DNA from: Hormiphora californensis
Lineage: Eukaryota; Animalia; Ctenophora
Reading direction: 5' to 3'
DNA length: 64,000 nucleotides
NCBI GenBank assembly: GCA_020137815.1
Contig: CM035360.1
Span: 6,386,001-6,450,000 of the forward strand
Shown here: positions 8,551 through 59,500 of the stretch, one piece after another
Position numbering within the stretch: position 1 is the stretch's first letter
Layout: the number at the start of each line of letters is the position of its first letter
The notes under the pieces: model-generated
Told to the model about the DNA's origin: nothing
Seen by the model: only the letters and a program-made list of their open reading frames with translations
Databases searched by the model: none
Made by a program: the position numbers and the translations under genes

Positions 8551-11500
8551 TTAGATCTTCAAACCACCGAGGGAAGATGAGAGGGCATCAAAGTTCCAGA
8601 TAACTAGACGGCCATCTTTCCCAGAGGTAGAGAACTTGGAGATAGTGCCTGTTGCGGGGTTACGGGTCAGGGCCCTTATCTCTGTGATACAGTTCTCATG
8701 GGTCGTGTCCACTGTGGTTCCTGCTGCAGAGAGAGGGTGGGTGGGTTAGTGTGTGGTGGCGAGAGTTTTAAAAAGTCGGTTGATCCCCCATGGGAGACCG
8801 GATTTATTTAGAAACAAAATAGATAGAGTACAATATATTCGGGGTGATAAAAAAAGAGCTATTACCAGTTTCACTTTGTCCCTGTACATCCAGTTTTTGG
8901 AAGCGTGCCATAGCAGCTCATAGCAACACCACCACCACTCTTCTCTTTCTTAACATCCATCTTAGCAGTGAAGGCAACTGGGGGATTGAGTGTGAGTGGA
9001 ATTAGTGAGAGGGAGGAGTGTACAGATGTTCATATTCGTAATAAGGCTAATTGCACTTGCAGGGGCAGCAGGGAGATTGCACAATCTTAACAAGAGTGTG
9101 TGTTACTGTGCCCCCCCCCCCCTACTGGGGTAATCAGCAATACAGTAAGGCATGGAATATATATACCCCCGATTCACCGACACACTTAATACACAAACAA
9201 GCTGCTATAATTCTACCCCTTACCTCCAGCTCAGTATCCCAGGTCCCAAGACGTCTTTAACAAACAATGAGACAAAACAAACAAACAATGAGACAAAACA
9301 AATAAACAAACAAACAAACAAACAAACAAACAAACAAACAAACAAACCCCCTACCTCCATCAGCAGAGACAGTGTAAAGATCAGGGCAGTAGTTGAACCC
9401 AGCAGCTGCAAAGCTATTCTCACTCATCCACAGGAGACAGCTGTACGGTAGGTTGGCAGTCAGTATCGTGTGGACCTGGGGGAGATGTTATAGAACATGT
9501 GGGGGACTGGATATTGGATTCTGGGTGAGTAACTGGACACAAATTGAAGGTTTAAACTGAGGTTAGAACTGAGCCAGTTGGCCTTAATCCTTCTGTATTA
9601 TCTAGGTCTCAGCCAGATCCAAAATGTAAGGAACATCTTATCTACCTTAGTAAGAGTTGTAGAGTTGACAACATTGACACTGGAATCATGTGCCACCCAG
9701 GCTAGCTGGTTGCCACTGGGACTAAACTGTACACCGTGTACCCAGCCGTTATTGGTATCAAACTCCGCTAGCAGAGTACCAAACTTGTTCAACCTGATGG
9801 GGGGATGAGGGTTGATGAGTTGTAGCGAAACGTTTTCTTATTCCAATTTCCAACATATCTCCCATGCCGCATATTTGAAAACGAGTAGTTACCACTCCGT
9901 CCCTGATCCCTACTACTGACTACACATCACAACTCCTTCACCATCTCACCCCCTACTACATCCACCACCAACTACAAGGTAGGTACTCCCCTATTTACTT
10001 TGGCATCCTCTCCTTCAACCAATAAGCCCTGTCAAAACTCTCAGACCCCTACTTACTTTGGCATCCAGTTGGATGTCTGAGGTTTATCTCCCAGTTCCTT
10101 GAGGGCAGAACAGAACACCCGGCACTTGAAATCACAAGATCCAATGGCAACTAGATGGTTGGAGGGGTGCCAATCAACACAGAGGATGGTGGACCTAATG
10201 GGCTTCTTGATGTGCTTACTAACCCACCTGGGTGTGTTATTGTGTGTTAGTTAAACCACTTATACGTAGTTATAAGAGTGGTATTTTACTAATCTAGGCA
10301 GAGTGGTTTTAGTTAAACTATGGTTGTTACAATCCGGTTAGTAGGAACAGGGAGGAAAACATTCCCAGGCATTTTACAGGAAGTTGAGAATAAAAAGGGA
10401 GAGAGAGAGAGAGAGAGAGAGAGAGAGAGAGAGAGAGAGAGAGAGAGAGAGAGAGAGATAGAGAGATAGAGAGAGAGAGAGAGAGAGAGAGAGATAGAGA
10501 GAGAAAGAGAGAATAAATAAAAAGAAAGAGGAAGAAGGAAAAAAGATAGAACACACTACTCACCAGTTATGCTCTGGATCAAAGTAGCAGATGGAAAGGA
10601 GTCTAGCACCACTACCAACTGCAAACCTGTCCTCCAGAGGGCTCCATCGCACGAAGGTGGCTGCACGGTTTATTCGCAGTAGCACCAGGCATGGCTTCCA
10701 ATAACCTGTGGGTTGAGATTATTACAAGATGGGTTGAGATGGGTACTGGGTTGAGATGGGAACTGGGTTGAGATGGGTATCGGGTTGAGATTATTACAAG
10801 ATGGGTATCGGGTTGAGATTATTACAAGATGGGTACTTTGTAAAGAGTATATAATTAGCGGGTGAGGGGCGGGGTGAGGGTGAATGAAACACAGTTATGA
10901 GATGAAAATTTTTAGAAAATAATAAAAATTGGTTAAAATTTAGTTAATTGATGCATGTATATGAATAATTACAGCTCTTCACACTGCAGTAGTTTAAACA
11001 AATCTCCAACCCCTTTCAGTCGTGATTTGCGAAGCCCGCAAAGCTCTAGAGAGATGACGGTGCCACCAACAGTTTCCACAAATCTCCAAGTTCCATATGC
11101 ATGAGATCTTGTTCAGGATTATGTTCAGGATTGTTCCGATCTCCAAGTTCCCCTTTCAGTCGTGATTTCTGAGAAGACTCTCCCACATTGAAGTTATAAT
11201 CATAATGGACGATGTCTTTGTATTTTCTAGCAAACTCCGCACTGATGTTTTTACATTTCTTCAAATTGAAGGACTTCAACCGTTTCAAGTTATTAATCAG
11301 GTAGAGCGCTTCGTCCTCGGAAACAACAGTGCCTTTCAAGGAGAGTGTAGACAGGGAAGTAGCCTTGGCGATGGATTTGAAGTCGATACTGCTGCCTGTA
11401 AGTGGAAATACTTCGTATTTATTTTCGAATATGTTGAGATGGAGGGTTTCCAGGTTTTTGAGTTCTGCCAAAGATCCGAATTCAATGACCGGCAACTGTG

Positions 11501-56500: not shown

Positions 56501-59500
56501 GTACCCCCAGGAAGATAGTTTCAATTCTACCGTTGTTACCACAGTGAGATACAAACAGGGTTATCTTGCCGCTAGCCTAGCAGTGACTGCTGGGGAGCCC
56601 AGGTTGTCAGATGAAACTTATCATGAGGCAACCAACTAAACTGCCCCTCGGTGAACGTCTTCAAGATGACTGCCACGTTGTCCATGGCAACTAGGGCGTC
56701 CAGGACGTCTTTATGCCACCTAGTCCATGTCAGATCTGTATAGGATCCTAACTGAGAAGTAGAGAATGTTTTTACCCTGGTGGAGAATCAATAAAGTCCA
56801 GAATAGGGCCAGTTAGGGGTTTAGGGGGTTTCAGTGATGCCCCTCCCATCTGTAGGACATTGTTGGGTAGTTGGTAGGGGAATGAAAATGCTAGATGATC
56901 GTTCATCACGTACAGCTCTATCCTGTCCATCAGCTGCTCCGTGGTAACTGAGTGTTTCTTGTAGATAGGAGCCAGCATGTTTTCTAAGGCTCTATTCAGA
57001 AGGAAAGTTCCCTGAAGATAGTTTACTAGATTGTACGTCCTCTCCAGTAGTCCTGGACTCCCCTCCCTAAATACAGGATTCACTATCCCTGGTTCGCTGG
57101 CAAACAGGGGTGGCAGGTTCATAGCTTCCCGGGACTCTGTGTACACTACCTCTGGGTTGTATGTGATTATTGGTATCTTCTGGGTGTGTGTAACAGCGGA
57201 TATTACTAACTGCGTCCTGTGTTCTGCTATCACCAGATCGAACTTGTTATCTGTTATAAATTTCTCAAACTGGGGGCTACTGTAGAAGCTGAAGATCCCC
57301 GAATATAAGTTGACCCAAACTTCCCTACACGGCGTAAAAGCCGCCATACAATCTGCGTACATAGTGCCTTGAGGTCCAACCTGGGCTAATGGTGCCGCAC
57401 ACCGCTCAACAAGCGCTCCGAAATCTTCGGCAGTGAACACAGTGGTGAAGGGTGGCACGATGTGGTAGTTGGGGGAGGTGATTTGTAGCCGGTCATCGTG
57501 TAGTGGTGATACAAGGTATACTGTGTGACCTTGATCTGATAGCAGCTGTCCCAGGTGGGCTACTGCAAAGTAGTGGCTGCCAGAGAAGGGAGCTGCAACT
57601 AGGATATTGGCCGGGTGGACTGGTGAGACCAAGAGGAACAGGACCACAGGGAGCAACATTCCTATAACGGGCTGTGGGAGTGAAAACTGAAAACAACAAA
57701 ATTACAGGGGGGAGAAGATGAATATAGCACATCTGGTCATTACTAAGAGAGCGAGGATAGAAACTGTCAGAGCTGCTGTAAGAAGAGAGAAGGCTTCCAC
57801 TGCAGCAGCAGGACGCGAATTAAGATCAGAAGTGAAATATGATCTCCCTAACACATAACTAAGTCAGATAGCTAAAACAGAGAGAAGGAGGAATGAGCTG
57901 TTTTAAGACTAAAAGGCTGCACAGAGGGCGGAGAAGACAAATTAAAGACCATTCCGCGGTGTGAAACTTAAAACTGCAGCATGATAGCTTATCAGTTTAT
58001 AGGAAGAAGGTATACCGGAGACAGCTATATAATTGGTTAAATGAAAACTCAGCTTATCAGTGCGATGGTCTTGAATGGTAGGGAACTCACGAATATACGA
58101 GTAATTTTATTAGAGGATCTACCGGGGAAGTTTGTACCGCAAATGAGGGGACGATATGCTGTTATGCTCTCTGTTGTGTGATATCCCAGTCGCAAGTGTG
58201 ATTACATTAATTAAATCTACTATATTGTACTTCCTTCTGTTCTCAATAACCCATTGTTCATTTTGTTCATATTGTTCTTGTTGTATGTAGATTCGAAATA
58301 AGGTTCATCAATCATCGTGTGTGTTATGTATGACCGTAGCTACTTACAAGGGGATCCTTTTACCTATATTCCTATATTCCTGGAACCCTATCATAAACTT
58401 TTTTAAACTTCAAAAAACTTACCCGTTCGTTATCGAGCATGTTGAAGACAAAGTCAATGACGACCTCATCCTCAAATCCCAAGATATCACTAATCCTCTG
58501 GGATATCCAGGGCTTTACCGTATCAACAGACACCTTCTCCATGTCAATCTGGGGGTGGGGTGTTATTAGGTGGGGCTGGGGGTCAGGATAGTGAATATAG
58601 TGGGATGTTATTAAGTGGGGCTGGGGGTCAGGATAGTGAATCTGGCCAGATTCACCCAATAACACGGGACCCACCACCCAGATCTGGGTGTTGTGTTATT
58701 GGGTGATGGGGGAAGAATAAAGTGAGAATAGTGAGTAATTTCTGTGTGAAACAGCCCAGTGGCAGGGTTTGCCACCCAGAAAGCTTGAAAAAAATTGGTG
58801 TGTTATGATTTCTACCTTGGTTTCAAGGGTCGGTTCAAACTTCATCTGTGCACGGAGTTTCTTTTGCTTGTCTTTAAACCTGAGAAAGATGGAGTTAGAT
58901 TCATGTTTCACTGCACAGAATGAGATGGAGATTATAGGTAAATGTAGGACAGTAGTGTGTGAAACTAGGGAGTGTGAAATGAGGGAGTGTGAAATGAGGG
59001 AGTGTGAAATGAGGGAGTGTGTGAAATGAGGGAGTGTGTGAAATGAGGGAGTGTGAAATGAGGGAGTGTGAAATGAGGGAGTGTGAAATGAGGGAGTGTA
59101 TGAAATGATGGAGTGTGTGAAATGAGGGAGTGTGTGAAATGAGGGAGTGTGAAATGAGGGAGTGTATGAAATGATGGAGTGTGTGAAATGAGGGAGTGTG
59201 TGAAATGAGGGAGTGTGAAATGAGGGAGTGTGAAATGAGGGAGTGTGTGAAATGAGGGAGTGTGTGAAATGAGGGAGTGTGAAATGAGGGAGTGTGAAAT
59301 GAGGGAGTGTGAAATGAGGGAGTGTATGAAATGATGGAGTGTGTGAAATGAGGGAGTGTGTGAAATGAGGGAGTGTGAAATGAGGGAGTGTATGAAATGA
59401 TGGAGTGTGTGAAATGATGGAGTGTGTGAAATGAGGGAGTGTGAAATGAGGGAGTGTGTGAAATGAGGGAGTGTGTGAAATGAGGGAGTGTGTGAAATGA

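Follow-up and report, generated by a model that had tools for sequence, protein, structure and literature searches.

Three intronless genes nested in sense within ARPC1 and SRRM1 introns of the ctenophore Hormiphora californensis, and how their mRNAs may arise

Genes lying inside introns of other genes are abundant in the ctenophore Hormiphora californensis, for which 2357 nested genes were reported, “many” of them parallel to their host (Schultz et al., 2021, PMC8527503). The sequence-only reading of the DNA considered here had invoked such an abundance, correctly. This DNA, hereafter the window, is the 64,000-nucleotide stretch 6,386,001 to 6,450,000 of contig CM035360.1 (assembly GCA_020137815.1), where three intronless genes of the F-box, BTB and UGT families are nested in introns of ARPC1 and SRRM1. 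Like the parallel nested genes of the published genome, they are whole ctenophore genes in a single host intron, on the host strand as many of those are, in a locus where the identical spliced leader (SL) is used. The same strand, on which 29% of the nested genes of Drosophila lie, also goes with a single exon in that genus, where 72.5% of same-strand against 37.4% of opposite-strand nested genes are single-exon, where nested genes are fast-evolving and narrowly expressed, and where nested and host genes are poorly co-expressed; a simpler explanation of a same-strand, intronless pattern has thereby been published (PMC3814207). Since insects are without SL trans-splicing (PMC7986045), SL-dependent processing of a host transcript is unavailable in Drosophila. 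Besides, a glass sponge with an SL also has nested genes (PMC10282587), and mammalian nested genes show a slight opposite-strand bias only (PMC11694760).

Other systems express one gene from the transcription of another. In the Hydra RFC140-flp pair, a newly arrived intronless gene is expressed at once under a housekeeping promoter by means of SL (PMC3273482), and the SL-resolved operons of a chaetognath and a tunicate have short spacers like those between neighbours in the window (PMC12460157, PMC7986045). In the Hydra, chaetognath and tunicate cases, however, the added gene stands behind the 3′ end of the upstream gene and not in an intron. CSB-PGBD3 (PMC2268245) and CPNE1-RBM12 (PMC2568002) place a separate coding unit under the promoter of another gene, and PGBD3 lies in sense within an intron, as do the nested genes here; these units are cis-spliced to host exons, which in the window would be out of frame for the F-box and BTB genes. 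In dinoflagellate retrogenes with SL relics (PMC3229502), a retrocopied SL mRNA brings its own AG, a situation to which a weak SL-like stretch at the F-box ATG may be compared, whereas here the resemblance concerns one gene of three, an equally good match is found at about 1% of control ATGs, and neither a poly(A) tail nor a target-site duplication was found. What separates the processing of same-strand nested genes from that of their hosts was left open by the Hormiphora genome paper. Among the hits listed by our literature searches, with subscription papers and the Hormiphora supplements outside their scope, no title dealt with the excision of mRNAs from host introns by SL, and the search for the “alternative operons” of Caenorhabditis elegans gave no matches. 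Parallel nested genes being already known in Hormiphora, this locus adds three new members, and the mechanism is a proposal.

The neighbouring genes include those that we take, from their sequences, to be ARPC1, SRRM1, NACA, DRAP1, MIOX and EFG1; among the window proteins, Pfam supports WD40, histone-fold, XPB, XendoU, F-box, BTB and UGT. The RNA evidence consists of assembled contigs from four runs per locus (runs are given as X numbers), shallow environmental sets whose depth is unusable for ranking genes, and the contig joints are those listed, i.e., 15 of 17 for the ARPC1 region and seven for the SRRM1 region. The nested genes and their introns are the following (nt, nucleotides; aa, amino acids).

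10706..12643, minus strand: ARPC1 host intron with the F-box gene, 1938 nt, GT-AG; joint 10703/12642 in X1, X2 and X3
11046..12545, minus strand: F-box gene, intronless, 499 aa (PF12937)
12546..12643, minus strand: spacer from host donor to F-box ATG, 98 nt; candidate TAG acceptor (G at 12547); no CpG
51970..54151, minus strand: SRRM1 host intron with the BTB gene, about 2.18 kb; joint 51964/54151 in one X8 contig
52415..53923, minus strand: BTB gene, intronless, 502 aa (PF00651); two candidate acceptors, both TAG, 5 nt (53929) and 9 nt (53933) upstream of the ATG
55597..58422, minus strand: SRRM1 host intron with the UGT gene, 2826 nt, GT-AG; joint 55596/58423 in one X8 contig
56064..57659, minus strand: UGT gene, intronless, about 530 aa (PF00201); candidate acceptors CAG 12 nt (57672) and TAG 2 nt (57662) before the ATG

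Each nested open reading frame (ORF) lies wholly inside one spliced-out host intron. The ARPC1 intron (12643-10706) is removed in contigs of three of the four runs, and the splicing out of each SRRM1 intron is supported by one contig in one of four runs (X8); at the joint of the BTB-bearing intron three letters stand in between, the borders being GT-AG if one base differs. All three ORFs align with full-length homologs in one uninterrupted stretch (tblastn in the case of UGT) and are hence intronless. Because these homologs begin at the same Met as the window ORFs, the nested genes are stand-alone genes. Same-strand, intronless nesting in ARPC1 and SRRM1 introns, as first read from the sequence, is thus real, RNA joints and continuous alignment of homologs both bearing it out. 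All three genes lie on the host strand (p 0.125), and the minus strand also carries eight of the ten non-nested genes recognised in the window. The claim that each cassette nearly fills its intron holds in part, the ORF occupying 77% of the intron for F-box, 69% for BTB and 56% for UGT, with spacers from host donor to ATG of 98, 227 and 763 nt, respectively. Of the RNA-supported introns (n = 16, median about 300 nt), the four largest include all three that host a nested gene. Large introns without a nested gene also occur, in ARPC1 (1006 nt) and XPB (about 3042 nt), where the longest ORF with an ATG is below 100 aa.

The closest named protein homologs are from Pleurobrachia bachei, and together with the SL match described below they make a pleurobrachiid ctenophore the likely source of the sequence. 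The three families had been called expansion-prone, which suits BTB (17 matches, 13 from the P. bachei set) and UGT (86 matches in a representatives library of 50%-identity clusters) and is weaker for F-box because of its just two homolog matches, at 75-77% identity, one of them named P. bachei. The leucine-rich repeat (LRR) label attached to the F-box protein found no Pfam support at E 0.01 in the window protein, with weak LRR matches at E 0.06-0.15 in one homolog; the F-box C-terminus is unlike that of the homologs and shows local duplications. In the BTB tree (13 rows; five of the 17 matches were left out of the alignment, and the tree likewise lacks four of those, which are partial), three copies of the P. 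bachei set form a group with the window copy (99/100), which falls outside a pair (99/98), so that no one-to-one ortholog is evident. A search of metagenome contigs with a 12-row BTB alignment gave 81 pattern matches and no relative, and a UGT search among longer proteins gave no match in 1758 candidates. Both the F-box and the BTB ORF stay open for 1.5 kb and are 64-77% identical to their homologs, and the UGT protein has a hydrophobic leader of its own.

The RNA cover of the three genes is unequal. No contig of the four runs covers the F-box body, though contigs join across the ARPC1 intron, and BTB is likewise uncovered in all four runs, though a contig joins across its intron. UGT RNA is found in X1, X2 and X8 (three of four runs, two studies) as contigs 94-98% identical to the window; these are confined to 55942-56644, leaving the 5′ half uncovered. 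In X1 and X2 they occur where the flanking SRRM1 exons are uncovered, which oligo-dT 3′ bias may explain; uncovered stretches (the UGT 5′ half, most SRRM1 exons in X1, X2 and X6) prove nothing. The 5′ ends of F-box, BTB and UGT are reached by no contig, and no nested SL was seen among the loose ends listed.

In this assembly the UGT ORF is broken by three +1 frameshifts. At the single shift under RNA cover, an X1 contig is without the extra base, and similar +1 extra bases in ARPC1 and SRRM1 exons are missing from RNA contigs.

8915, 51878, ~51965, 56576, ~56720 and ~56775: single extra bases shifting the ARPC1, SRRM1 and UGT frames

These shifts are likely assembly errors, with allelic indels as the alternative, and such errors can make intact genes look broken. 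A short intron was considered as the cause of the UGT breaks and rejected, since homologs align straight through.

SL trans-splicing, a premise of the sequence-only reading, is indeed in use at the locus. Contig loose ends at 7427 (X1, X2) and 50357 (X2) match the H. californensis SL printed in PMC8527503 and place it on two neighbours with operon-like spacing, the NACA and EFG1-like genes, which have spacers of 130-260 nt and no CG clusters. The features concerned, with the relevant CGCG/GCGC clusters, are as follows.

7422..7604, minus strand: spacer from the DRAP1 3′ region to the NACA SL acceptor; SL loose end 7427 in X1 and X2
50356..50487, minus strand: spacer from the SRRM1 3′ contig end to the SL acceptor of the EFG1-like gene, 132 nt; SL at 50357 (X2), SRRM1 contig end 50487 (X1)
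14576..14620, no strand: CGCG/GCGC cluster upstream of ARPC1, likely the ARPC1 promoter
61434..61488, no strand: CGCG/GCGC cluster upstream of EndoU, likely the promoter of the EndoU-SRRM1-EFG1-XPB run
52051..52093, no strand: CGCG/GCGC cluster with a TATA-like word in the BTB-bearing SRRM1 intron, downstream of the BTB stop

Six such clusters occur in the window, three of them preceding EndoU, ARPC1 and DRAP1, and none lies within 800 nt upstream of SRRM1, EFG1, XPB, NACA or the three nested genes. This is illustrated by the CGCG/GCGC counts over these 800 nt, which are 0, 0 and 2 for the nested genes, 10 for EndoU, 9 for ARPC1 and 5 for DRAP1. The CG-less neighbours sit 132-387 nt behind their upstream gene (measured from contig ends or stop codons), and two minus-strand runs, 61250-39850 (EndoU-SRRM1-EFG1-XPB) and 8270-2022 (DRAP1-NACA), have clusters only at their heads. 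With SL on closely spaced neighbours, the window therefore looks operon-like, and we infer that both runs may be operons; no description of ctenophore operons surfaced in our literature searches. The cluster at 52051-52093 may be an enhancer or, from within the intron, a promoter of the genes farther 3′. In Mnemiopsis, many promoters and enhancers bear a GC-rich CpG motif (PMC12221973).

Several neighbouring features were noted besides. The DRAP1-like gene (8249-7839, minus strand) is intronless, about 260 nt behind ARPC1, and has its own CG cluster at 8357-8405. Within NACA intron 2, a 951-nt Pro/Glu-rich, in-frame, cassette-like exon (4403-3453, minus strand) has a TAG acceptor and a GTTAGT donor and is skipped in contigs; it is reminiscent of the large alternative exon that vertebrates have in skNAC. 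NACA intron 1 has two copies of another acidic candidate exon (about 5403-4831 and 7230-6637), one on either side of a repeat element. On the plus strand, an intronless-looking seven-transmembrane (7TM)-like gene with frameshifts (about 33830-37177), recognised by eye and with no Pfam match, is interrupted by a repeat element of 1.3 kb that has long inverted ends, and it might be antisense-nested if the MIOX first exon, which was not located, is far upstream. This gene cannot use a minus-strand transcript and yet has no CG cluster, so the lack of a cluster does not show the lack of a promoter.

The sequence-only reading had also given each nested gene its own acceptor just before the ATG. A candidate AG is present in all three cases; its use was not seen in RNA, and its ranking, within the top 3.5-17%, is modest. 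With an acceptor model built from 15 RNA-confirmed cis acceptors and applied to the best AG within 20 nt of the ATG, an equal or better AG was found in 8.6% of 1058 control ATGs for F-box, 16.9% for BTB and 3.5% for UGT (combined Fisher p 0.019, post hoc). As the real SL sites themselves score poorly (-5.8 and -2.1), the model is a weak test of trans-acceptors. All 15 RNA-confirmed cis acceptors end in CAG and both confirmed SL acceptors in TAG, as does a probable third at DRAP1 (8270; 23 unaligned letters). A TAG lies within 12 nt of each nested ATG against 15% of control ATGs, a post hoc comparison. An exact SL scan gave 97 loci. Of 96 SL-bearing loci compared, 73 have a long ORF, and in these the distance from SL to ATG has a median of 17 nt and is at most 15 nt in 48%; none of the 96 matches the window (blastn) or the three nested families (tblastn). 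The AG-to-ATG distances of the nested genes, 1-12 nt, fit SL transcripts, and the acceptor and TAG pattern taken together would fit SL use on these genes. It is silent on the promoter, because at least 56% of H. californensis Iso-Seq reads carry the SL anyway (PMC8527503), so that most ctenophore genes should have an SL acceptor however they are driven.

As regards origin, the three genes share the absence of introns with retrogenes. No poly(A) remnant (longest A-run 5-7) and no flanking repeat in register were found around them, and such signs may have decayed. The F-box ATG is abutted by a 26-nt SL-like stretch matching at 19 of 26 positions. When the full leader is compared with free truncation, an equal or higher score is reached within 15 nt by 23 of 2194 ATGs, and shuffles of the F-box spacer reach the score in 3 of 1000 cases at the spacer end and 30 of 1000 anywhere; the starts of SRRM1 and ARPC1 also have equal scores less than 60 nt away. 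The stretch was rejected as a strong relic, the 26-nt piece (10 of 127,920 positions) having been picked post hoc and about 1% of ATGs doing as well under a fair test.

Twelve SL loci were inspected. In ten, an ORF1-like frame follows the leader, and the flanks before it differ from locus to locus; one leader lies at a contig end, and one locus is an SL RNA gene repeat. The ORF2 pieces match the APE endonuclease family in four of four cases, one weakly.

Loci L016, L025, L028, L044, L060, L088 and L095; L049, L057 and L091; L007: SL-headed elements resembling long interspersed nuclear elements (LINEs), ORF1 with zinc knuckle, APE endonuclease where tested

Since LINE-like elements start with the SL behind differing flanks, SL-capped RNA has likely been reverse-transcribed into ctenophore-like DNA. 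The SL RNA gene repeat, L062, has two SL copies 778 nt apart (710-735 and 1488-1513), the first followed by a GTAAG donor, and the sequence upstream of the copies is presumably 5S rRNA-like. The window itself contains a 5′-truncated LINE reverse transcriptase ORF (32888-31038, minus strand, 616 aa, PF00078).

How the nested genes are expressed is a matter of weighing several readings. Our preference, held tentatively and at slightly less than even confidence, is that they are nested genes of the ordinary kind, each driven by a short, CG-poor promoter that belongs to it, and yielding separate leader-capped mRNAs. Intronless members of fast-turnover families would be tolerated in sense inside introns as they add few splice signals, selection against mis-splicing being the presumable reason for their intronlessness; the putative short promoters would drive the nested mRNAs, and SL would be added at the AG before the ATG. 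This reading is preferred because of the Drosophila precedent and of the unequal RNA cover, i.e., an ARPC1 intron joined in three of four runs without any F-box contig, and UGT contigs without the flanking SRRM1 exons in X1 and X2. The three genes need not share a mechanism, UGT with its 763-nt spacer being the best fit to an own promoter and F-box, with 98 nt, the worst. Several points weigh against it, however. No promoter has been demonstrated for any nested gene; like four probable downstream operon genes, they are without a CG cluster within 800 nt upstream; just 98 nt separate the ARPC1 donor from the F-box ATG; and a TATAAA such as the one before UGT would turn up by chance in a spacer of 763 nt. 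Moreover, the host polymerase crosses each cassette, including its processing signals, and the SL-headed LINEs suggest that promoterless use of read-through RNA is possible in ctenophores. The intronic operon of the sequence-only reading is a possible if somewhat doubtful account, in which promoterless cassettes would be SL trans-spliced at their own AG on the host transcript and the 3′ end would be cut behind the ORF, either on the nascent pre-mRNA, at the cost of the host mRNA concerned, or on the lariat after its excision, by which time the host donor has been consumed and both mRNAs survive. It is favoured by the SL on the closely spaced, cluster-free NACA and EFG1-like genes, by the cluster-free nested genes and the short F-box spacer, by the TAG and AG-to-ATG distances given above, by the SL-headed LINEs and by the Hydra case of a new gene joining an operon (PMC3273482), whereas the same pattern arises without SL in Drosophila (PMC3814207). 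The F-box AG has a host donor 96 nt before it, a distance close to the length of short introns in this genome (102-170 nt), and no SL was seen on the nested genes, F-box and BTB being without contig though contigs join across their introns. In C. elegans, an upstream donor favours cis over trans splicing; the lariat route would solve this problem for F-box because the donor has already been used. The premises of the proposal that SL may cut a nested mRNA from the host pre-mRNA or lariat stand, with SL on neighbours and nested genes free of CG clusters; its key step, the cut itself, is hypothetical. A broader version, in which ctenophore intronic operons, possibly resolved from the lariat, combine with SL-bearing retrocopies that are made by the machinery of SL-headed LINEs and arrive with their own acceptor, spreading families through introns and expressing them at once, is only slightly less probable than the intronic operon by itself.

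Two further readings deal with the cassettes as something other than separately expressed genes. In one of them, F-box and BTB would be copies that are silent or in decay, and UGT, in the allele of this assembly, would be a pseudogene. This would agree with the missing RNA cover of F-box and BTB, the three UGT frameshifts and the rearranged F-box C-terminus, yet it is improbable given that the F-box and BTB ORFs have stayed open at such identities, that the RNA runs are shallow environmental contig sets, that similar +1 shifts affect ARPC1 and SRRM1 exons and are missing from RNA contigs, and that UGT RNA exists. Slightly more improbable is a role as alternative 3′ terminal exons, with the host donor cis-spliced to the cassette in the manner of CSB-PGBD3 or CPNE1-RBM12, or with F-box read through from the ARPC1 exon. 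In its favour, the F-box AG lies 96 nt from the host donor, splicing of the SRRM1 exon to the CAG acceptor of UGT would keep the frame, the reading frame of the ARPC1 exon stays open into F-box (585 aa), and the long NACA introns contain in-frame cassette-like exons. Against this, joining the host exon in cis to F-box or BTB would break the frame, no host-to-cassette joint occurs among the joints listed, and the homologs start at their own Met, with a hydrophobic leader in the case of UGT.

If the genes have promoters of their own, as we tentatively prefer, there is nothing out of the ordinary in the finding. Of interest in itself is that SL genes in this ctenophore window are spaced in an operon-like manner. 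For the question of how same-strand nested genes are processed, the window offers test loci in three named genes, whose spacers measure 98, 227 and 763 nt, and positive controls in the RNA-supported SL sites nearby. Should the nested mRNAs instead come from the host transcript, introns would constitute a second kind of operon slot, and a rapid route of expansion would be available to families of E3 adaptors and detoxification enzymes.

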